Shown here: positions 3,700 to 29,281 of the stretch, one piece after another
Numbering within the stretch: position 1 is the first letter of the stretch
How the letters are laid out: the number at the start of each line of letters is the position of its first letter
Source of the DNA: a virus
Virus record (IMG/VR): IMGVR_UViG_3300042884_001120
Location: 32,001-96,000 of that record
Length of the DNA stretch: 64,000 nt
Direction: 5' to 3' (one strand)
Program-made: the position numbers and the translations under genes
The notes under the pieces: model-generated
Seen by the model: only the letters and a program-made list of their open reading frames with translations
What the model was told of the DNA's origin: nothing
The model's database searches: none

Positions 3700-4320
3700 T
3701 TATAAAGAGAAAGCTTCTAGCGTATATTTGAAAGGATTGCCTTCGATATTTTTAACTGCCACTAGCATTTTCGAGGCGATGTCTCGTATTTCTACTTGAG
3801 CATGTTCGGAATTTCTTAGTCTTTGAAAATTAACAAAACTACGAAAATTAAACATTACGTCTGCCTGTATTTGTGAATTGTATGTCTTAAAAAAGCGCGC
3901 CGACTCCTTTGCTCTTTTTCTATCTAGCCCAGCTGCTTCTAATCCAGCCAAGCATTCGTGGTACAGGTCATTGCCAGCTTCTGTATAGGCCTGTAGCTTG
4001 CTTTTCCATTCATCTGGCCAGTCATTGGGTATGTAGAATTTATCCTCTTTTAATTCTTTATATCTTGCGCTCTCGGCATTGAGAGAACTAATCCTATGTT
4101 TTAATAGGTGAATGTGGCTGGCTATTTCAGTATTAACTAAGAAATGCAAGTTAGACTTCTCAAATGGCGTTTCGTGTCCATTTTCTGCAAGCATCTTTAA
4201 AAGATTAGGAATTCTATTCTTTTTCTCTTCTGTTAGTTCTCTACTGGTAGAAGTCCATGCACTACAGGCATTTACTGTATCACCTCCATACCAGCCTATT
4301 AGTTCTACGGTATTATTCAT
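3700..4320 (-). CDS. thyX: flavin-dependent thymidylate synthase
   Basis: GHETPFE and KHRISSLNAESARY (variant of the RHRx7S ThyX motif), LRNSEHAQVEIR. Start moved to ATG 4320 (MNNTVELIG), which overlaps the upstream stop. Confidence 0.93.
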   Translation of the reverse strand: MNNTVELIGWYGGDTVNACSAWTSTSRELTEEKKNRIPNLLKMLAENGHETPFEKSNLHFLVNTEIASHIHLLKHRISSLNAESARYKELKEDKFYIPNDWPDEWKSKLQAYTEAGNDLYHECLAGLEAAGLDRKRAKESARFFKTYNSQIQADVMFNFRSFVNFQRLRNSEHAQVEIRDIASKMLVAVKNIEGNPFKYTLEAFSL

Positions 4321-4855
4321 TAATTGCAAGCTGTTGATCAATATATTTACCAACGTTTGCTGGTGTATAGGATGGGCTTTTTTGAACTTTCCCATCCTTT
4401 GCTTTAACAAGAAATGACCTTCCCGAAAACTCAACGGGCTTTACTGTATAAAGATCTGGATTTAATTGCATTACCTCTTCTTCCGTAAACAGTTTTGTCA
4501 TGTTTGAATTATGAACCTCTTCCTCAACTGGCGCAATATCTATTCCATAGGCATTCGCCACGCCGTAATTAACGTAGGAAATATCTGCAACCGCATCCGC
4601 TATCCCAACTAGGGATACTGGCGTGTTTTGAATTTCTTTGAATTTAATTTTATTTGTCTTAATTGAGCTGGTATCTAGGGGGGTATTAAATGTATCGAGT
4701 ATTCGAATACTACTTGCTTCGGCAAGTTCCAAAACCTCCTCTAAAAGTAACTTTATTCTTAAAATTCTAATATCTGTAGAAGGTATTGTTGGTATGCTGG
4801 GGCATTCTTGACCAAATACGTTCATGAACTCTTTTACTTTTTCTTGGTAATGCAT
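4313..4855 (-). CDS. MazG-like / PRA-PH family nucleoside triphosphate pyrophosphohydrolase
   Basis: VKEFM..FGQ, LRIKLLLEEVLEL, DAVADISYV.YG, EVHNSNMTK, DGKVQK.PSY. Confidence 0.85.
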   Translation of the reverse strand: MHYQEKVKEFMNVFGQECPSIPTIPSTDIRILRIKLLLEEVLELAEASSIRILDTFNTPLDTSSIKTNKIKFKEIQNTPVSLVGIADAVADISYVNYGVANAYGIDIAPVEEEVHNSNMTKLFTEEEVMQLNPDLYTVKPVEFSGRSFLVKAKDGKVQKSPSYTPANVGKYIDQQLAINE

Positions 4856-4919
4856 ATCTATATATAAATAAATTTTAATAAATAATCAATATAATTTTTA
4901 TTAATTGTGTAATATATAT

Positions 4920-5714
4920 ATGAACTGGATACCATCCCCACCTCCTAATCAAGGGCAAATCCTTCCAGATGGAACTTTTGACCCTATAGAGAATGGCGGA
5001 TATAGTAGATCTAATAGTTTTCAAGAACGTAAATTGAATTTACAAATCCCATTAAGATGGGATTTTGATATTACGTTAGCTCCTGATGTTGTGGGGGTTG
5101 CAGTTACTCAAGCGCCGTTGGTTATTCAACGACAGCAGAGATCAGGTCCTAGTATATCCATAACTGCAGAAGAAAAATTTAAGGTAGTATTAACTCCGGC
5201 CACACAAGTTATTGCGGGGTGGCCACCGGACTCACCCCCATTTAATTCTTTTGCTAGTCTTGGTCCCGTAGCTTCGAGTGATAAATGTCCTTGGGCGAAT
5301 GAAAATGAATTATTAATAAATAATTTTGATTGGGTTAAAAATGTTCGTGATTTTGGGCAGTACTGGCATTCTTTTGAGGCGAAACGTCGTGTACAAAAAT
5401 GGTTAGACGATTGGTTTATAGTAAAATGGGTTAGATTTGCGCGCGATAGTACAGAACTTGTATTATATGGTGATCTTATAGCTTTGGACAAGTATGGTAA
5501 TGTGCTTGGTAGTTGGAGTAATTATGCTAACCAAGAGGCAGCTGTTGCAGCTACTTTGTCTGTTAATTTTAAATTAATTTTATTGTGCCATGAATTATGT
5601 AACTACACATACCTTCAAGAAGGTTCTATAGGTTATTTTTATCGCCAAAGACCAGATAGTGAGGAGGCAATAAATTGGAGCATAGATGAAAACGGGTACT
5701 GGGAAGAACAGTAA
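4920..5714 (+). CDS. hypothetical protein (Trp/Pro-rich, putative late gene)
   Basis: ORF track 4905..5714; ATG 4920 lies 7 nt after GTGTAA (4907-4912). Confidence 0.6.
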   Translation: MNWIPSPPPNQGQILPDGTFDPIENGGYSRSNSFQERKLNLQIPLRWDFDITLAPDVVGVAVTQAPLVIQRQQRSGPSISITAEEKFKVVLTPATQVIAGWPPDSPPFNSFASLGPVASSDKCPWANENELLINNFDWVKNVRDFGQYWHSFEAKRRVQKWLDDWFIVKWVRFARDSTELVLYGDLIALDKYGNVLGSWSNYANQEAAVAATLSVNFKLILLCHELCNYTYLQEGSIGYFYRQRPDSEEAINWSIDENGYWEEQ

Positions 5715-5811
5715 TACGGTTATATATACAATATATAAGATATATTCAATAATTTTTACATGAAATATACAATTTAATGTAAAATAAATTTATTTGAATG
5801 TAAATAAGTAT

Positions 5812-6138
5812 ATGTCAATTAGCAAAGAGCAAGTTAACGATTTTATAAAAAAACCAAAGTTAGATAACATCTTATCTGTAGATAATATCTGGAAAGTTTC
5901 CGTTCTTGCTTTTATGGCGGCAAATTTGTATTTACAGCAAAATTATACAAGTAGAATACAGTTTGAGCGCATGGATGATAGGGTTAAAAAAATTGAGTTA
6001 ATTTTGGCACAATTAGAAATTAAAAATCAAATAGATGCCACTCAAACATCTCAGTTACAATCAATTGATTCTAGAATCAGAGATCTTGAAAAAACATCTG
6101 CAGTTTTATTGAGATTAATAGAACAGTCAAAAAATTAA
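5812..6138 (+). CDS. membrane-anchored coiled-coil protein (possible lysis accessory)
   Basis: Hydrophobic segment IWKVSVLAFMAANLYL followed by a heptad-rich coiled coil; ATG at 5812. Confidence 0.55.
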   Translation: MSISKEQVNDFIKKPKLDNILSVDNIWKVSVLAFMAANLYLQQNYTSRIQFERMDDRVKKIELILAQLEIKNQIDATQTSQLQSIDSRIRDLEKTSAVLLRLIEQSKN

Positions 6139-6145
6139 AAACAAA

Positions 6146-6358
6146 ATGAAACAAAGGAGCACGGCAGTTAATAAAAGAAGGAAGTTAAGGGCAATTTGTA
6201 CAGTTTTTGACTTACTGCTCATTCTAAGTATAATTGCCCTATTGCTCACTGTTTTATGTATGATGTTTGGGGCCACAATAGGTGCCGCTATGATAGGCTC
6301 ATATGGCTTGGCTGGGTTAGCCGCATGGTCATTTCTTAGGAGTATGCTTAATTTTTAA
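6146..6358 (+). CDS. small two-TM membrane protein (holin-like)
   Basis: Basic N-terminus followed by two hydrophobic helices. Confidence 0.5.
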   Translation: MKQRSTAVNKRRKLRAICTVFDLLLILSIIALLLTVLCMMFGATIGAAMIGSYGLAGLAAWSFLRSMLNF

Positions 6359-7392
6359 AAGTATACAACATTACCAATTTTTTTTAACGACTGATTGATT
6401 TTTGATAGTATCATTGGATCAATTGCTTTTAGTTTAGATATTTCTTCTAGCGCATCTTTGAACATTTGTGAGTTTTCTAGAATATATTTCTGAGATTTTT
6501 CGTCAGAGAAAAATACTGCTGTAAGTCGTTCGTTATTAATTAGCGGCAAAAAGAATTTTAAATATTCTTTGTTTCTTTTAATTATTGGCAGAGATCCTTG
6601 GAAATTGTTTTCATTTGTAAAAAACTCCCGTGTTTCTTTGCCATTTTTTTCTTCAAACAGTTGTTTAATCTTGCTCTCCAAACTGCCAACTTGCAATGTA
6701 ACTAATAGTTTTGTGGGATTAGTTTTTTCATCTAAAACGTCGTATATATCGCCCCCTTCATTAAAAACTTCAAGCGCATAATCTAAACGCCTTGGTGACA
6801 CTAGTTTTTGAGCGTCTTTGGGTAATCCATCCCACCACTCAATTGCTCCATGGGCAATTTTAGTTCCGAATTTATTATTAAAATAATCGAAATCAGGAAC
6901 ATAGGGAACTTTGATTTTAATTTGAAAGCGGTCAATTTGTGCCGAATCTAGATTTTCCACATCGTATGTTTCATCCTCGTCATCCGAGGGATTAATTGCC
7001 GCCCATACTACTTTTAGATTAGGAAATTTTCTGCCATTAATGCTTTTAAACTGTATTAATTCCATGGTAGCATTTCTGACTTTCTTGTGGCTTCTGTTAT
7101 ACTCATCGAAGAACATTGCTTTTAAATTAGTATTGATCATTTGTTTCGGCAATATAAAATCCAAACAAGGTTCATTATTTATTTTCGATTCTTTGGGTAC
7201 ACCAATTAAATCTGTCCATGGGTCTAGGGTACTAGAAGAGAAATATATCCAGTTATTCTCGCCAAATTCTTCATTAAAGATTTTTTGAATCAATGCTGTT
7301 TTACCAACTCCGTGCTTGCCCTCTAGCATTACATTTTTATTTAATTTTAAATAAATTCGAAGTTTGTTTTCTAATTCTTGCGAGTTTAGCAT
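6355..7392 (-). CDS. MoxR-like AAA+ ATPase
   Basis: Walker A GKHGVGKT, Walker B FFDEYNR, AAINP sensor, LDSAQIDRF Arg finger. Confidence 0.9.
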   Translation of the reverse strand: MLNSQELENKLRIYLKLNKNVMLEGKHGVGKTALIQKIFNEEFGENNWIYFSSSTLDPWTDLIGVPKESKINNEPCLDFILPKQMINTNLKAMFFDEYNRSHKKVRNATMELIQFKSINGRKFPNLKVVWAAINPSDDEDETYDVENLDSAQIDRFQIKIKVPYVPDFDYFNNKFGTKIAHGAIEWWDGLPKDAQKLVSPRRLDYALEVFNEGGDIYDVLDEKTNPTKLLVTLQVGSLESKIKQLFEEKNGKETREFFTNENNFQGSLPIIKRNKEYLKFFLPLINNERLTAVFFSDEKSQKYILENSQMFKDALEEISKLKAIDPMILSKINQSLKKIGNVVYF

Positions 7393-21825: not shown

Positions 21826-22634
21826 AGCAAATTATGAATAGAATTTATAATATTGTCAAAATTAATATTACTTGCACTGTCTGCTTCTAGAAAAATAGCA
21901 TTTGGATTAATGGGAGTTCTATTTTGGAGCGGCGCACAATGGGGATACGAGTTGGTGGAGTATAGGCCTAATGTTTTATGTTTATAGCCAGACATTATCC
22001 AGTTCATACCTGTATCTGCGGTAACTAAAAATCTACAGGATCTTGCTACTCTAACGTCTTCAAAAATACTTCCACCCACTGCGGGTAAAGTTGTATTGAG
22101 TTTTTCATGTGATGTCAACCCTAATTGAACTGTCCTTAATCCTAAGGAGTGTATATATTCAATAATTTTATTACTCAAATCTTTTGGTACATCCCTTATC
22201 GCACCGGCGCTTGAAAAGGTTGTGAATGCTACATAGTCATCATATTTTTCAATTTTATCTGGCAAATCAGTTAAATCTATCTGCAGGTTACTTGGGGGTG
22301 TTAGATCATGCATTTTGCACACCGCACTTGTATGGTGCTCATATAGATACCATAAATTATTTTTATGTTGGGGCATTGGATTGAAAACTATGTCAAAATT
22401 ATTATTTTTAATATACTCTAGATCAGCATTCGACGGCCAATTGTCGTAATTCTCCCAAATTTTAATTTCATCTATAAGGGAATTGTTTTCAAAAATTGGC
22501 GCACATGATTGATACTTTTTATTTATCCCAAAAACTAAATGCGATCTAGGATATTTTTCTTTAAATGCTCTACATGCGATTAAATTCATGGCTAAATCGC
22601 CAATTTGTCCTTGATTAAATCCTATTGCTTTCAT
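21822..22634 (-). CDS. GT9 (heptosyltransferase-like) glycosyltransferase
   Basis: QGQIGDL, LVTADTGMNW. Confidence 0.8.
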   Translation of the reverse strand: MKAIGFNQGQIGDLAMNLIACRAFKEKYPRSHLVFGINKKYQSCAPIFENNSLIDEIKIWENYDNWPSNADLEYIKNNNFDIVFNPMPQHKNNLWYLYEHHTSAVCKMHDLTPPSNLQIDLTDLPDKIEKYDDYVAFTTFSSAGAIRDVPKDLSNKIIEYIHSLGLRTVQLGLTSHEKLNTTLPAVGGSIFEDVRVARSCRFLVTADTGMNWIMSGYKHKTLGLYSTNSYPHCAPLQNRTPINPNAIFLEADSASNINFDNIINSIHNLL

Positions 22635-23302
22635 GATATTTTCTCTACAGTGCCAGCTATTAAATCGCGTCTCTCTATATTACCATTCTCGTCTTCCCTG
22701 ACGCTGTATCTTCCGTTATTACAGAATAACATTTCCCAGTTATGGTGAACTTTATAGTTATTTTTTTTAAAATGATTTTGTGTTGATTCCTCGCTCCAGA
22801 ATATTTTGTGCTCAAATGGTCCCGGTCCGCCATAGGCTAAAGTGGGATTTTCTAGTATAGTATTTTTATTAATAAAATGAGCGCGTTCTGAGTATCTATC
22901 ATTATGCCCCGCACCACCAGAAAGGTCAATTGATGCATATTCGCTCTCGCAGGTTTTTATCATTTCGTGTAATTCTTTTTCTTCAAAATCTCTGCACATA
23001 TATTGATCATTTTGTACGTACATACAATAATCTGTATCACAAAAATTAAATAATGTGTTCGTGCCATGACCGCATCCGTAATTTTTCTTGCTGAGTATAA
23101 GCCTATCTATAAGATTAAGATTGTAAAATTCTCCTAAATAATCTTGTGTTCCGCCATTGCTAAGAAGCACGACTTCATAATCATTAAAACGAGTAAACTG
23201 TTTAATAGAAGACAAGCAAGCAGCTGTTTCAGACGGCTTGTTAAAATCCATGACAAGAAATGTCAACTTATGGTTAAAAAGATTTCTATTTCCGTAGTCC
23301 AT
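22631..23302 (-). CDS. GT2-like (GT-A fold) glycosyltransferase
   Basis: TFLVMDFNKP...CLSSI, EVVLLSNG, NYGCG.G.N, YVQND. Confidence 0.78.
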   Translation of the reverse strand: MDYGNRNLFNHKLTFLVMDFNKPSETAACLSSIKQFTRFNDYEVVLLSNGGTQDYLGEFYNLNLIDRLILSKKNYGCGHGTNTLFNFCDTDYCMYVQNDQYMCRDFEEKELHEMIKTCESEYASIDLSGGAGHNDRYSERAHFINKNTILENPTLAYGGPGPFEHKIFWSEESTQNHFKKNNYKVHHNWEMLFCNNGRYSVREDENGNIERRDLIAGTVEKIS

Positions 23303-23304
23303 AA

Positions 23305-24132
23305 TTATATTATATGATCAGAGTAATGATTTAGGTTATTCAAAATAACTTCGGGAAAATATTTATCAATATTAACGCGAGAGAATGGTGTCTCTTTCTT
23401 ATCAAGTTGCTCAAGATGAATAAAAAACCTATCACCCGATTGTTTAAACTTTTCAAAGTGTTCTTTGAATTGCTCCAGTGATGGGAGTTTTGTTTTGTCA
23501 AATGGCTCTATACATGAAAGACTTTTCTGGTAAATTTTTTCATATCCACCTAGCCAGCTAAAGTGCCATCCCGCATTTACTATTAATGGGTAATAATCTT
23601 TACTGTTCCTAATTGATTGGCAGCTATGCTGTTTGAATGTACTGAAATTACATGCCGTGGTTCCCACCCAAGATCTGTTTGAGGCTTTTAAATTTAAAAA
23701 GTATGCAAAAAAATCAAGCTCTAAAGAATAAATTAGGTCATGATTTTTCGGGTCTGAAAAAACTGTTTTTAAAGCCTGTATTGATTGCTGTCTGGGTATT
23801 TCATCAAGATCAGAAATCATTATTATATCTCTGGCATCTGGGTGTAGATCTATTACCGCTTTTTGAATGTAGTTTCTTTGGAAGTTCTCCATATTCCATA
23901 AATTATCATCATTATTAACGCATTCATTTTTTGGTATTTTGATATGCACTATTTTATCTTGGAATTTAGAAAGTTTATGTTTATTGTCTTCAAAGTAAAA
24001 TGGTTTATCCAGAAGACTCTGTGTTACGGCCGCCTCTACTAGTACAAATTTATCTACATGGCTATAAAGTTCTTCTAGCCTTACCTGCAGAAGATCTAGT
24101 TCGTTAAAAAATGTGAAACAATCAATTATCAT
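23305..24132 (-). CDS. GT17 (beta-1,4-GlcNAc transferase III-like) glycosyltransferase
   Basis: MIIDCFTFFNELDLL..RL.EL..VD.FVLVE, E.FQRN, SDLDEIP, GWHFSWLG. Confidence 0.9.
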   Translation of the reverse strand: MIIDCFTFFNELDLLQVRLEELYSHVDKFVLVEAAVTQSLLDKPFYFEDNKHKLSKFQDKIVHIKIPKNECVNNDDNLWNMENFQRNYIQKAVIDLHPDARDIIMISDLDEIPRQQSIQALKTVFSDPKNHDLIYSLELDFFAYFLNLKASNRSWVGTTACNFSTFKQHSCQSIRNSKDYYPLIVNAGWHFSWLGGYEKIYQKSLSCIEPFDKTKLPSLEQFKEHFEKFKQSGDRFFIHLEQLDKKETPFSRVNIDKYFPEVILNNLNHYSDHII

Positions 24133-24797
24133 AATTTAGGCAGTCTTTCATTGGGTATCAATACTAAATGTTTATGTGTATTCGGGATGGGATTCCAGTC
24201 TGCATCTTGCAATATATTACCATGCGGATTATCAATAATTGAGTATTGGTAGTCTTTTAAGTTATTAAAGTTAAAACCGCCATCCTCAGGCCACTTCCAG
24301 TGAGGATTATTTTGATAGTCATCTTTATTATTTTTTGAAGATGCGTGTATTTCTACATGAATCGTCGGGCGCTTATTCTCGAAAAGGAAATCAAAAGTAT
24401 TTAATACGATGCTTTCCATGCCTTCAATATCCATTTTAATAAAATCTGGTAAATCTATATTATGTATTTTTATAAAATCGTTTAGTCGTGAATATTTAAT
24501 TGGCTGCTCTCTATTTCTTTCTCCGTGAATTCTAAATTCTGAACAGTCTTTAAAGCGAGTGTTACAGTCATAATTTTTATCGTTAAGCGCTATGTTGTAG
24601 CAATGAATATTGTTGTGTCCTGAAGTATTATTCAATAAATCAGAAAAATTTAATGTAGAGGGTTCAAATGTAAATACTTTTCTTGCGCCAAGATTTACAA
24701 ATTTAATACTCATTTCACCAATATATCCGCCAATATCATAAACTATACTATTGGGTTCTAAGTATGTTTGATATAAAATGTCTTCGATGTTATTCAT
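24129..24797 (-). CDS. FkbM family methyltransferase
   Basis: VYDIGGYIG, VFTFEP, PDFIKMDIEGME, IHVEIH. Confidence 0.9.
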   Translation of the reverse strand: MNNIEDILYQTYLEPNSIVYDIGGYIGEMSIKFVNLGARKVFTFEPSTLNFSDLLNNTSGHNNIHCYNIALNDKNYDCNTRFKDCSEFRIHGERNREQPIKYSRLNDFIKIHNIDLPDFIKMDIEGMESIVLNTFDFLFENKRPTIHVEIHASSKNNKDDYQNNPHWKWPEDGGFNFNNLKDYQYSIIDNPHGNILQDADWNPIPNTHKHLVLIPNERLPKL

Positions 24798-24799
24798 GG

Positions 24800-25755
24800 T
24801 TATATATATTTTCTTTGTATTATTGTATTTTCTATTGTATTTCCGTATTCGGGAAACATGCTTGATGCTGGATGTAGGGTTGAATTAATTACTAATTGAG
24901 ATATCGCATTTATATCGTAATGCATTGGTAGTACATATTTCTCAAATACTAGCCACCTTAATAGGTGCGAAGGCGCGGGATTAAATGGTTGTTTACAGTA
25001 CTTAGAAAAAACATAGGTAGGTTTTCCGTAGTGTAGTGGGAAATATCTCAATCCAGAGTCTACGCCAATAAAGGCGGAACATGCCTCGCTTAATGCAAAA
25101 AAATCTTCTAGTGAGCAATCTGTCAAAGTAAAGTTTGGATATTGAAGATCTGAGATTTCTTTATAAAAATCCATATATTCGGTTTGACACACCGAAACAA
25201 CCTGCTTACCAGACGCTAATAGCTTTTTAAGCAATGCTATAACATACCACTGTTCAACATTATGATCAGAGTTGGGTCTTGGGTAAAGATGTGTAAGAAT
25301 ATAACTATCTTTAATATCAGACAACTGATTATTTATCTCTGGTCTTGGAAAGAAATAAAAATATCGTTTCCAATCAAAACTATAATTTAGCCAGTCAAGG
25401 TTGTCTATGCACAGGTTATAGAAGTAATCTGAGTCGTTAAGTAGTTTAATATATTGATCTGGTAGATTATCTAGATGGCAGTTATAAACCTCTTCTCCAA
25501 ACTGGCTTTTTACTTTAAAATCTTTACTTTTTCTACTTTCAATTACTTTGCAATTATTATTTGTATAAATACTTGGCCAAGCATACTTAAGCAAATTTAT
25601 CTGTTTGTGGTTATTTTCAGTATCTGAATAGAAATTTAATTGAGCATTAGGGTGCTTTTCCCTGATGGCCGCGACAAATCTATTAGATAGAAGATGATCT
25701 CCGATACCTAACCGCCCTCAAGACGAATAGAAACAGTGTGCTTACTTGGGGGCAA
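24800..25755 (-). CDS. GT9-like glycosyltransferase with a 5-nt frame disruption near the N-terminus (bypass candidate or pseudogene)
   Basis: TTG 25755 gives MPPSKHTVSIRLEGG-stop. The downstream frame reads GIGDHLLSNRFVAAIREKHPNA... into ORF 24800..25594, which contains FIGVDSG. Confidence 0.7.
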
Positions 25756-26584
25756 TTAAACCACCCCCTTGTACTTGTGAAAAAAAATCTTCCATTTTAA
25801 GTTTTTTTCTGTTTAAAAAAATGTTTGCATCTTTATATAGAAAGTTATATATAGATAGTATATCTTCTTGCGAATAAATGCAAGTATTATATAAATTAAA
25901 ATTTGTATATTTAGAGATAGAAACCCTTGGTCTTACTCCTGTAAGCTTTTGTATATGAAACTTAGCTTTTTCGTGCCATTCTTTTGTACTAATGATAGAA
26001 AATTCCCCGTTAATATAATTTCTTTGGTTTTTTTTAATTTTAAAACAGCCATCCCCATCAAACATTCCTCTTATATAGTGCCTAATTAATTCTTTTTGTA
26101 GATTTGGGAATTTTAAATTTACGGTCTTGTCTTGAATGCATCCAAAAGACAATAAGTCTTCACTGATTTTTCTTATGGGAACATAAAGTTTGTGCATGTT
26201 TTTTTTGCCCTTCTTTCCGGGTGGACGGTTTTGTAACGGCCTATCCCCAAAAAATAGAGAACTTATATTTTTTAGTATATAACCATCTTCTTCTTGTAGA
26301 GATATTTCGATCTTTCCTCTTTTTACATCGTTATAACCATCTGCATGAAAGAGCCCTAAAAAATAAGCTTTTTCTTGGGTATCGATGCTTGTAAAAATAT
26401 TTTTATTAGTTGGATATAATATATTTCTTTTTTGTATTGCTCCGTTCTTTTTAAGAACGTAATAAATTTGGTCCTTTGTCAGTCCTAATTCTGAAGAAAT
26501 TTCGTTGTATGGCTTTCCATCTAAATATAAGGATTTCATAGTGCATAACTGCTTTTCGGTGGGATAAAACGGTTCTTGTCTCAT
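25742..26584 (-). mobile_element. free-standing double-motif LAGLIDADG homing endonuclease with N-terminal HTH
   Basis: AYFLGLFHADG, HYIRGMFDGDG, YNFLYKDA..FL.RK; GTGTAA 9 nt before the ATG. Confidence 0.88.
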
Positions 26585-26622
26585 TAAATGATATTACACT
26601 CCTTCCGATCGTACAGTCGTTA

Positions 26623-27723
26623 TTATTTTGCTAGTGCGCCCTTGAACTTATTGAATAAGTAAAGACAAATTTCTTTATTTTCTTCCAAGAAAGTTCTTAA
26701 CTTTTCCATTCCTTGGATCGTGCTTGGTACTGCTTGCCCAGTTTCTTTTGCTACTTCGTCTATTAATTTAGAATCAAGATTAATCCATGCTCCAGCCTTT
26801 TTTGCAAAACCCCATTGAATTAGCATGTCAGATACTTCGTATTCAATCCAAATGCTATTTCCACCAGTTCTACCATGGCGAATTGGGTACAATATTTCAG
26901 TTCCTTCCTTCTCGTTCGTGGTCTTTCGGAGAAGAATTTTTGCCCAATGACCAATAATTTTTCCATCTTCAACTATCTGGTCTGCTTTATACCTAGGTTG
27001 GAACTCGAAAATCCAATCAGCATAATGCTGTAGAGCATTGCCACCAGAACTATTTGTAAGTTTTGGATCTGTTTTGGCGTACGGATTAATTTGAACATTA
27101 GAACGCACCTGTGAGATTAGCGCGCAAACGTGTCCAAAAGTTGATAGTGGCAACATGATCATTTTTAGAAAATGCGAACTAATAACTGCTCCAGCGGCGA
27201 CTTTTTGACTATCTTCAAAGCCCTTGGCGGCATCGTTTTTAGCGATAAGCGCATCCATGCTATCAATTAAAAAATAATATCTAGATTCGTCTGGATTATT
27301 CTTAATTAATTCCAAGATAATACTTGCAACATTTTCATAAATATTAGTACGCAATACGAAGCAAGTTCCATCAACCCAATCTTCGGCCTTGTCTACAAAC
27401 TTAACTCCAGATACGTTTTTTACATTAGAGTTAAGCCTTCCTTCTGCTTTAACTAGAAAACCCTTACCCTTTGGTACCGTATCTAGGAAATTCTTCATAA
27501 TAAGAAGAGCGGAACTGGTTTTTCCACCACCACTTACTCCAGTAAAACGTAAAATTGCTGGAACTTCTAACGATCCCCCCATCTCTGAATCCAAGAGGAG
27601 TGAGCCCGTAGATACGTTAAAAATTTTTTCGTCTTCAAAGTTATAGTGTTCACCTTTCGTGCTCTTTAGAAAGGATGCTAATACGGATTGACTTGAGTTT
27701 GATTTTACTTCTTCTTTTGCCAT
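26623..27723 (-). CDS. recA: RecA/UvsX-like recombinase
   Basis: STGSLLLD, GVSGGGKTS, KAEGRL, IDSMDAL, ISQVR, SGGNALQHYA, KAGAW. Confidence 0.9.
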   Translation of the reverse strand: MAKEEVKSNSSQSVLASFLKSTKGEHYNFEDEKIFNVSTGSLLLDSEMGGSLEVPAILRFTGVSGGGKTSSALLIMKNFLDTVPKGKGFLVKAEGRLNSNVKNVSGVKFVDKAEDWVDGTCFVLRTNIYENVASIILELIKNNPDESRYYFLIDSMDALIAKNDAAKGFEDSQKVAAGAVISSHFLKMIMLPLSTFGHVCALISQVRSNVQINPYAKTDPKLTNSSGGNALQHYADWIFEFQPRYKADQIVEDGKIIGHWAKILLRKTTNEKEGTEILYPIRHGRTGGNSIWIEYEVSDMLIQWGFAKKAGAWINLDSKLIDEVAKETGQAVPSTIQGMEKLRTFLEENKEICLYLFNKFKGALAK

Positions 27724-28237: not shown

Positions 28238-29281
28238 TTACATATTTACACTATTTTCAATAACTAAATCCCTTTCAACCATTCTTTTTATAAGTTCTTT
28301 GAAGGAAATTTTTGGAACCCATGCTAGTTCAATTCTTGCCGTTGATGAATCGCCCCAAAGTAAATCAACTTCCGCTGGACGATAAAACTCTGAATTAATT
28401 TTAATTAAAATAGACCCATCCTTATCAATAAATTGTTCATCTATGCCATCACCTTTCCAGTTTCCTTGGATTTTAGCGTTTTCAAAAGCTAATTCAATAA
28501 ACTCTCTTACTGTATGTGTTTCTCCAGAAGAAAGTAGATGTTCCTTGGGCTGTTCTTGGTTTAACATTTTCCAAATACCATCTACAAAATCAAGCGCATG
28601 ACTCCAGTCACGCTTTGCGTCAATATTGCCTAGTTCTAACGGAGCAAATGGAATATTGTTATTAATAGCATTTTTAATTCTGGCGACTCCCTTTGTGATT
28701 TTTCTGGTAACAAATTCTACACCACGACGTTCTGATTCGTGATTATATAATAACCCCTGAATTGCATATAAATTATAACTCTCACGATATACTTTTACAA
28801 TATGCCTAGCGGCAGCTTTAGCTGCGCCATATGGACTTCTAGGTTTTAACGGATGGTTTTCATCTTGTGGCGAGTAATCAACATTACCAAGTTCTTCGCT
28901 AGAGCCTGCATTATAAAACCTGCAATTTGGTGCGTGTTTGCGAATTGCCTCTAAACACCTAATAATCCCGACAGCGCCAACATCGAATGTTTGTTCTGGA
29001 ATTTGCCAACTGCTACCAACAAAGCTTTGTGCTGCTAGATTAATAAAATAATCTGGATTAATTTCTTTAACAATGGAATCTATTGATTGACTGTCAGATA
29101 AATCTCCCGTAATAATAGTTAATCTTGGGTTATTAAGTAAGTGTGATATGTTAACAGTATTTAAATTGCTACTTCTTCTAACCATTCCAAAAATATGGTG
29201 ATCAGTATTTTCAAGTAGATAATCAACCATATAACTACCATCTTGACCAGTTATTCCTGTTACTATAATTTTTTTAACCAT
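28238..29281 (-). CDS. gmd: GDP-mannose 4,6-dehydratase
   Basis: TGITGQDGSY, NLAAQSFV..S, PRSPYGAAK, NHESERRG.EFVTRKIT, RDW, YRPAEVDLL.GD. Confidence 0.95.
   Translation of the reverse strand: MVKKIIVTGITGQDGSYMVDYLLENTDHHIFGMVRRSSNLNTVNISHLLNNPRLTIITGDLSDSQSIDSIVKEINPDYFINLAAQSFVGSSWQIPEQTFDVGAVGIIRCLEAIRKHAPNCRFYNAGSSEELGNVDYSPQDENHPLKPRSPYGAAKAAARHIVKVYRESYNLYAIQGLLYNHESERRGVEFVTRKITKGVARIKNAINNNIPFAPLELGNIDAKRDWSHALDFVDGIWKMLNQEQPKEHLLSSGETHTVREFIELAFENAKIQGNWKGDGIDEQFIDKDGSILIKINSEFYRPAEVDLLWGDSSTARIELAWVPKISFKELIKRMVERDLVIENSVNM

Follow-up and report, generated by a model that had tools for sequence, protein, structure and literature searches.

A glycosyltransferase (GT) gene interrupted by five bases was found in a 64,000-nt window comprising bases 32001-96000 of the 154,360-bp IMG/VR virus record IMGVR_UViG_3300042884_001120, an uncultured lake phage with direct terminal repeats and 36.4% G+C. 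The five bases, TAGGT, directly follow a GGT glycine codon, open with a stop codon, end in a second GGT, and are carried by a mobile element that encodes a LAGLIDADG homing endonuclease. Sequence comparison makes it probable that a short programmed translational hop lets this element break its own target site while the protein is left unchanged. [quoted passage not shown]

The interrupted gene consists of two open reading frames (ORFs) and the gap between them.

25711..25755, minus strand: GT ORF-A, a TTG and 14 further codons (LPPSKHTVSIRLEGG), delimited by translation, the N-termini of homologs and AlphaFold secondary structure.
25706..25710, minus strand: the 5-nt coding gap TAGGT, located by alignment with uninterrupted relatives.
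24800..25705, minus strand: GT ORF-B, translated from ATC 25705-25703 (IGDHLLSNRF...), 301 codons, with its stop at 24802-24800.

ORF-A starts at TTG 25755-25753, directly after an in-frame TAA, and runs for 15 codons to GGT 25713-25711, the take-off codon; it supplies strand beta-1 and the EGG of a conserved motif. The gap is made up of the stop TAG (25710-25708) and then GT, and the landing GGT occupies 25708-25706. ORF-B carries the putative catalytic GD motif and both Rossmann-like domains, and is 91% identical to the uninterrupted homolog P0002. Its frame is closed on the 5' side by TGA 25720-25718, from where 305 codons, beginning GRLGIGDHLLSNRF..., lead to the stop at 24800, and its first ATG, GTG or TTG is TTG 25594, 41 codons in. 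A first-pass annotation made from the sequence alone had already placed the two GGT codons, the TAG, the TGA and TTG 25594 at these positions, and every one of its coordinates holds.

The long frame has ~90 close to moderate homologs, and the nearest (66-91% identical) are uninterrupted proteins of 314 aa with the N-terminus MSQ(E/P)TVSIRLEGGIGDHLL. DNA alignment with the endonuclease-free relatives L002, L004 and L005 showed that the window exceeds them by exactly five bases, which separate codon G13 from codon I14; in the endonuclease-free relatives the recA stop overlaps the ATG of the GT gene (TAATG). Skipping 25710-25706 gives ..SIRLEGGIGDHLL.., letter for letter the ancestral protein of the unbroken relatives, and by conceptual translation only a +5 hop is predicted to yield the invariant motif of the family. 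Such genes are routinely called as truncated proteins, the public calls being of 264, 300-306 and 223 aa. Among cultured phages no relative of the GT enzyme or of the locus was found, and matches to the recA-like gene upstream reached only ~24% identity.

Other ways of passing the TAG were discarded. Read as a sense codon it leads into 23 junk codons and then TAA, and against reassignment of the stop codon stand the lack of a suppressor among the phage's 18 tRNAs and the use of TAG to end 17 of 150 ORFs. A search of Rfam with 25400-26900 gave no credible match, and no group I intron or other known RNA. A genome-wide scan for the codon-stop-gap-codon arrangement produced a second candidate (~19946, plus strand), which proved to be an antisense shadow of real genes.

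The GT protein had no match in Pfam (E<0.1), in PHROGs or among PDB sequences searched with a 43-sequence profile, and PF01075 is carried by one weak, 25%-identical match. An AlphaFold model computed from a 43-sequence alignment reached a predicted local distance difference test (pLDDT) score of 93.8, and its top Foldseek matches were WaaC, WaaF, a Veillonella GT9 and TibC (E 2e-8 to 2e-5, template-modelling score ~0.5). The model supports a GT-B, heptosyltransferase-like enzyme; the label GT9 given in the first-pass annotation therefore stands at the level of the fold, by the resemblance to WaaC and WaaF, and falls at the level of sequence family, where neither Pfam nor PDB sequences matched. 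Residues 5-11 of the model form beta-1, a helix begins at residue 14, and the gap falls in the beta-1/alpha-1 loop; beta-1 and the GG-xGD loop are integral to this confident model. E11, G12, G13, G15, D16, H17 and L18 are each at least 90% conserved in the 43 sequences. E-G-G-x-G-D is the most conserved motif of the enzyme and the gap lies two codons before its likely catalytic Asp, the corresponding Asp of WaaC being catalytic. A start at TTG 25594 would cost the protein beta-1, alpha-1 and the GD motif.

The gap lies within a mobile element that adjoins a recombinase gene.

25661..26621, minus strand: mobile element of ~960 bp, delimited by mismatch maps against the near-isogenic, endonuclease-free L002.
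25742..26584, minus strand: predicted LAGLIDADG homing endonuclease gene, 280 aa (Pfam LAGLIDADG_3, 3e-8, two stretches, and LAGLIDADG_1; PHROG endonuclease, 4.5e-44).
26623..27723, minus strand: RecA/UvsX-like recombinase gene, just upstream of the LAGLIDADG ORF (Pfam RecA, 9e-8; PHROG UvsX-like, 8e-23; synteny in L004/L005; alignment).

Divergence between the window and L002 is confined to 26621-25661, a stretch that contains the endonuclease gene and a recoded copy of the first ~32 GT codons with the 5-nt gap inside; the recoded tract is ~78% identical to L002 and has about 20 silent changes. The endonuclease has an N-terminal helix-turn-helix and two LAGLIDADG motifs (..LFHADGY.. and ..MFDGDGC..), the same in both alleles of the element, and the presence of two intact motifs in one chain is the ground on which a LAGLIDADG homing endonuclease is predicted. 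Its ORF overlaps the TTG start of the GT gene by 14 nt, an overlap that the first-pass annotation had also remarked on. Alignment identifies a diverged copy of the recA 3' end in the last ~13 endonuclease codons and in the G-rich run that precedes the TTG. The element therefore carries a diverged duplicate of its upstream insertion flank: 25742-25790 (minus strand), from the endonuclease 3' end (..FSQVQGGGLIAPK) up to the TTG, can be aligned with the end of recA and the former ATG (..FNKFKGALAK, TAATG). The endonuclease gene itself has GTGTAATAT 15 nt before its ATG (26591-26599, minus strand).

The allele 1 endonuclease protein occurs together with the truncated 264-aa GT call on eight contigs (NCBI, JGI, Logan), and a second endonuclease allele (88% amino acid identity) was found on four to five further contigs. 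GGT-TAG-GT-ATC is present in all endonuclease-bearing contigs found (NCBI, JGI, ENA, Logan; different samples), the identical gap being seen in at least 10 independent assemblies and always inside the element. L008 carries allele 1 in a different phage background (~78% identical); sliding identity between it and the window is 98-100% over 26629-25656 and 63-88% in recA and the GT body. Comparison with L009/L010 gives the reverse picture, with flanks of 97-100% and an element of only 77-93% identity. Allele 2 differs by ~12% from allele 1, the two alleles are distributed across at least three phage backgrounds, and the 3' end of the element, which lies ~45-50 nt beyond the gap, agrees to within ~10 nt among three contexts. 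This identity profile is a textbook mosaic: the element is mobile and has spread among backgrounds. Such spread is indirect evidence of homing, in which the endonuclease would cleave the element-free allele at a specific site. The suggestion in the first-pass annotation that the gap is connected with a mobile insertion bearing the LAGLIDADG gene is thus borne out by the position of the gap within the element, the two diverged alleles and the several backgrounds.

Between the two endonuclease alleles the synonymous divergence (dS) is 0.58 and the non-synonymous divergence (dN) 0.06 (dN/dS 0.10), from which it follows that the alleles are old and the enzyme has been maintained. Both old alleles keep the TTG, ORF-A and GGT-TAG-GT. 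Within the GT part, when each side of the gap is read in its own frame, the alleles differ by 8 synonymous and 4 non-synonymous changes (omega, the dN/dS ratio, ~0.12), while a control reading frame of the same part gives an omega of 1.4; the two non-synonymous changes 5' of the gap fall in the non-conserved leader that overlaps the endonuclease stop. For the synonymous excess the binomial estimate is P about 0.001, or about 0.003 with the last two differences given to the recipient background. The counts support purifying selection on both GT reading frames.

Genes broken at this point occur in seven lineages: the window, L009 (allele 2), L020, L092, L093, L094 and L095. A metagenome scan in which any five bases were allowed between R-L-E-G-G and x-G-D-H-L returned 15 matches, 13 of them unrelated, and led to L020 and L023, two independent records of one phage. 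The enzyme of L020 is ~41% identical to that of the window and no more than 48% to anything else in the database. Its site is the same, GAG GGC GGT TAGGT ATC GGA GAT, ORF-A has 15 codons, frame B is without a start for 35 codons upstream, and no endonuclease was found on the 10.5-kb contig. Representatives with gene calls starting just after the motif were then picked by an exhaustive HMMER search, and their DNA disclosed four more breaks at the same codon boundary. The lineages beyond the two alleles are as follows.

L020: gap TAGGT (5 nt), from GGT to GGT, TAG stop after take-off, no endonuclease.
L092: gap TTGGC (5 nt), from GGT to GGC, TTG sense codon after take-off, no endonuclease upstream.
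L093: gap TGAATGGT (8 nt), from GGC to GGT, TGA stop after take-off, no endonuclease upstream.
L094: gap GGGA (4 nt), from GGT to GGA, GGG sense codon after take-off, methyltransferase upstream.
L095: gap TAGGT (5 nt), from GGT to GGT, TAG stop after take-off, HNH+NUMOD4 endonuclease upstream.

The window and L009 both have GGT as take-off, GGT as landing and TAG between. In every gap type the triplet before the resume codon is GGN, and the take-off codon is always Gly. The stop after take-off is TAG in the window and three other lineages and TGA in L093, so that the pattern GGN-stop-(n)-GGN, which the first-pass annotation suggested looking for at this site in homologs, is present in L009, L020, L093 and L095, and reduced to a GGN pair with no stop in L092 and L094. 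The stop-hop it proposed, GGU-UAG-GGU restoring ..LEGGIGDHLL.., gains comparative support from the two alleles, the five other lineages and the purifying selection estimated for both frames.

The gap in the distant GT of L095 is directly preceded by an HNH_3 + NUMOD4 endonuclease gene (L095:1358-1903), and a different endonuclease family is therefore tied to the same module. Four lineages keep the module, with an intact ORF-B, in the absence of an endonuclease. At the position of the ORF-A start L092 has ATT (ATT CCC TCA.., L092:1936-1938) and no ATG, GTG or TTG in that frame, which implies a non-canonical start if the L092 gene is expressed. All 55 IMG/VR relatives (48 distinct sites) are unbroken, and the motif variants (GDHF, GDCL) present at 27 IMG/VR loci do not alter this; exact and degenerate pattern scans of IMG/VR revealed no broken site, and a scan of GTDB genomes for the pattern gave unrelated chance matches only. 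The homologs P0013, P0017 and P0088, with short or odd calls, were left out as fragments from contig ends or of low quality, and the cluster representatives P0283, P0298, P0297 and P0267, with odd or truncated N-termini around the GD motif (e.g. ..QRAVDLGDILCASRF), may represent further interrupted lineages.

The seven broken rows are dispersed over a tree of 83 proteins and require 7 changes, at least 5 of them forced by supported branches, a scatter that fits spread of the module by homing. In its beta-1 residues each ORF-A is similar to the clade to which it belongs. By analogy with the 'homR' of T4 MobA, this combination fits a horizontally spread module that re-copies host sequence.

A hairpin directly before the take-off codon is a further feature of the broken genes, one that goes beyond the first-pass annotation.

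25745..25753, minus strand: 5' arm of the hairpin (GCCCCCAAG), from RNAfold of ORF-A and its 101-nt context and from pair counts in the seven lineages.
25714..25722, minus strand: 3' arm of the hairpin (CUUGAGGGC), abutting the take-off codon, from folds and pair counts.

In 7 of 7 lineages a C-rich stretch near the start codon, after or just before it, pairs with the GAR-GGN codons directly before take-off, and the hairpin lies 0-2 nt upstream of the take-off codon. The hairpins of five lineages are strong, at -18 to -26 kcal/mol over 63 nt (z-scores of -3.0 to -6.1). In the seven-lineage alignment, with coordinates derived by hand from the sequence, 93.9% of the cells are paired, and slid controls attain at most 69%. 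Compensatory changes occur in 3 of the 7 pairs; in the 3' arm only the third base of the Glu codon and that of the Gly codon can vary freely, and changes at both are compensated. Covariation is 0.381 against 0.189 in shuffles, none of 500 shuffles reaching the observed value; it is significant only with seven lineages, and none was detected with the first three. The hairpin is absent from the 48 unbroken relatives, for which the same 45-nt window folds with -3.3 +/- 2.1 kcal/mol (minimum -9.2, none reaching -11). GAG (13/48), GGT at G13 (16/48) and ATC at position 14 (1/48) are minority states among the unbroken relatives, and are found together in the window, L009 and L020. In L020 an inner 7-bp stem ends 9 nt before take-off, the distance quoted for T4, and an outer 6-bp stem would form only after forward movement.

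A second hairpin, of 9 bp (GGGGGUGGU / AUUGCCCCC; 25748-25768, minus strand), encloses the TTG start and competes for the C-rich arm; in allele 2 one of its C-G pairs becomes U.G. This structure may couple translation of the GT to that of the endonuclease ORF, which has its stop 11 nt 3' of the TTG.

The course of events, including the hop and its efficiency, the role of the hairpin and the protection of the site, we infer as follows. The ~960-bp element would have inserted between the recA-like gene and the GT gene, and its gap together with the about 20 silent changes would destroy the endonuclease recognition site in its own genome. In unbroken alleles the endonuclease would recognise the coding sequence of E-G-G-x-G-D or a site some tens of bases further downstream, so that the element stays uncut and the unbroken alleles of co-infecting phages are cut and converted; such protection is suggested by the position of the gap in the conserved motif and by the asymmetric conversion tract. 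A ribosome would start at TTG 25755 and translate 15 codons. Once UAG occupied the A site, the peptidyl-tRNA(Gly) in the P site would let go of its GGU and re-pair with the identical GGU 5 nt on, and decoding would resume at AUC to give the ancestral ..SIRLEGG-IGDHLL.. (expected junction peptide LEGGIGDHLLSNR). The hairpin, on re-forming behind the ribosome, would probably favour the forward move, and may pull the mRNA on as it zips up at the exit, in the 'driver' role put forward for gene 60 of T4. No role is proposed for a Shine-Dalgarno interaction, because the genome is without a Shine-Dalgarno signal. The idea of the first-pass annotation that recoding tunes a glycan-modifying enzyme found no support, and protection of the element's own target site is the better supported function.

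Several observations weigh against the programmed hop. The nascent chain of 15 residues is too short for a peptide signal like that of gene 60, and synthetic stop-hops in E. coli are, in the account given there, low-level events (bioRxiv 10.1101/2024.12.09.627546). The codon after take-off is no stop in L092 (TTG) and L094 (GGG). The window's own hairpin is weak: it contains one C.A mismatch, and the 45-nt ORF-A folds at -11.1 kcal/mol with a z of -0.7. In a longer context the preferred partner of its 5' arm is the G-rich run at 25760-25768 further upstream, local folds in 101-nt windows gave z of -1.2, 0.0 and -1.9, not significant on their own, and the 3' arm would be inside the ribosome at take-off, which clouds its mode of action. 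The insertion into each background looks recent, for which reason an intact ORF-B says little on selection after insertion, and some of the synonymous differences 3' of the gap could have been imported by recombination from functional unbroken alleles. The search for broken relatives used N-terminally truncated gene calls and would therefore miss in-frame insertions. Lastly, the genes of the phage show no Shine-Dalgarno signal, and the rules established in E. coli may therefore not transfer to its host.

The recency of the insertions also speaks for the main rival, collateral inactivation, in which the gap protects the target site or is a repair scar, the GT is dead and dispensable, and a selfish element spreads anyway. 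Given the divergence of the backgrounds, an intact ORF-B would be expected after such recent insertions even for a pseudogene; the broken state was gained many times and was never seen as a deep vertical clade, and the phage has several other glycosyltransferases. This explanation is nevertheless considered unlikely, as it does not account for the synonymous-biased change in both frames between old alleles, the retention of the start codon and ORF-A, the landing GGN in every gap type, the co-varying hairpin at the take-off codon that unbroken relatives lack, or the survival of the module and an intact ORF-B in endonuclease-free lineages. A sequencing or assembly artefact, for which there is only the prior that metagenome assemblies contain indels, has a negligible probability; assembly error is ruled out because the same gap recurs across projects and assemblers and in both of the diverged alleles, and L020 and L023 are independent records.

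Two further explanations would have both frames translated without a hop. A programmed -1 frameshift in GAG-GGC-GGU is formally possible, given that the frames overlap by 9 nt between TGA 25720 and TAG 25710, and a stop in the A site can stimulate slippage in the P site. The product, ..LEG-RLGIGD.., with the junction peptide LEGRLGIGDHLLSNR / LEGRLGIGDHLL in place of the LEGGIGDHLL of a hop, would however have two residues added inside a motif that is at least 90% conserved. GAG GGC GGT TAG G contains neither an X XXY YYZ heptamer nor CUU-UGA-C with a spaced Shine-Dalgarno, the change from GGC to GGA between alleles alters the -1 re-pairing, and a shift of another size would be called for in L093 (8 nt) and again in L094 (4 nt). 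Forward re-pairing to the next GGN covers all cases, and a frameshift is accordingly held to be very improbable. Equally improbable is a split or restarted protein, with ORF-A yielding a 15-residue peptide and ORF-B started at a non-canonical codon such as AUC 25705 or at TTG 25594. Termination-reinitiation is common in phage operons, and TTG 25594 has an A-rich context like the other starts of the genome, but a restart there removes beta-1, alpha-1 and the GD motif. The context of the AUC is G+C-rich and structured, unlike the start regions of the genome, a beta-1 peptide made separately would need to find its place in the Rossmann core, and the matched Gly codons are left unexplained. The hop over the gap remains the preferred explanation.

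Translation starts were surveyed across the genome, and no Shine-Dalgarno enrichment was found upstream of its 145-150 ORFs. A Shine-Dalgarno-like stimulatory role for GAGGG was dropped on account of this lack of enrichment. Start regions are A/T-rich, with GTGT, TGTA, GTAA, TAAT and AATA enriched 2-3-fold upstream (a GTGTAAATA-like motif); the pattern suggests a host with weak Shine-Dalgarno use together with a phage-specific promoter motif. ARAGORN predicted the 18 tRNA genes of the whole genome at 4020-6755 and 133660-148220, with none for Gly and no suppressor; three calls, Ile-tat (95 nt), Ser-act (91 nt) and Tyr (85 nt), are unusually long, which introns or miscalling may explain.

The interrupted gene is surrounded by a glycan cluster (22631-24797 and 28238-29281, both minus strand). 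Downstream of it lie genes for an FkbM-type methyltransferase and for GT17-like and GT2-like transferases, in an order that varies among related phages, and recA is preceded upstream by a GDP-mannose 4,6-dehydratase-like gene.

For efficient bypassing in bacteria and phages, T4 gene 60 is essentially the single case that has been studied. According to the review cited here (PMC5009743), shorter versions using matched landing codons have long been presumed to exist, and natural stop-hops are unknown. With its 45-nt leader, hairpin and 5-nt gap the present locus would be a minimal natural system for asking what suffices for a hop, and nature supplies variants in which the gap measures 4, 5 or 8 nt, a stop is present or missing, and the hairpin has undergone compensatory changes. 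The comparison also supports an evolutionary logic in which an endonuclease targets the most conserved motif of a gene and immunises its own copy with a gap that ribosomes would ignore.

[quoted passage not shown] For the system proposed here T4 MobA/gene 60 is the closest one known, of which it is best regarded as an analogue and not as a member. As in T4 (PMC5009743; bioRxiv 10.1101/2022.08.31.505936), an endonuclease element that brings a recoded version of its target sits at a conserved enzyme gene, and a gap, predicted to stay untranslated, falls in a highly conserved motif; take-off and landing are matched Gly codons, UAG directly follows the take-off codon, the downstream ORF begins within the endonuclease ORF in another frame, and a stem-loop lies upstream. 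In both systems the gap persists after the endonuclease is lost or replaced, and insertions are repeated and recent while the element is old. The two differ in that the gap is 5 nt here (4-8 in relatives) and 50 in T4, so that neither an A-site stem-loop nor an internal mini Shine-Dalgarno would fit here. The 15-residue nascent chain excludes a tunnel signal of the KKYK type, which acts ~25-30 residues from the P site, and the hairpin abuts take-off where that of T4 ends 9 nt upstream. The endonuclease is LAGLIDADG (HNH in L095), unlike that of MobA, and the target is the N-terminus of a glycosyltransferase instead of a topoisomerase, in a gene that is not split into two proteins. The locus has no sequence homology to MobA or gene 60.

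The gene prfB, for release factor 2, undergoes a +1 programmed frameshift on CUU U stimulated by a Shine-Dalgarno-like element. There too, a stop in the A site and an upstream mRNA element promote forward re-pairing of the P-site tRNA; the present genome is without Shine-Dalgarno use and the proposed move is +5.

Candidate bypassing at UUA in terminase genes of Streptomyces phages would likewise be a short hop at a slow A-site codon; it differs in being regulatory, dependent on a host tRNA and not linked to an endonuclease (PMC5009743; PMC10732093). The byps of Magnusiomyces capitatus mitochondria are, similarly, short mobile coding inserts made harmless by translational jumping. They differ in being 27-55 nt long and mitochondrial, follow relaxed pairing rules and leave the A-site codon unused; homing endonucleases are not associated with them, and a hairpin upstream has not been described (PMC5009743). 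Comparable in the step itself are the synthetic stop-hops of E. coli, in which peptidyl-tRNA leaves the codon before a stop and re-pairs with a matched codon a few bases on; these are laboratory constructs which, as far as those accounts describe them, work at a low level and without stimulatory signals (PMC5009743; bioRxiv 10.1101/2024.12.09.627546), and no natural in-frame stop-hop is known according to the review (PMC5009743). The candidate site of the present phage, unlike those constructs, is natural, conserved and frame-changing, and stands behind a conserved hairpin.

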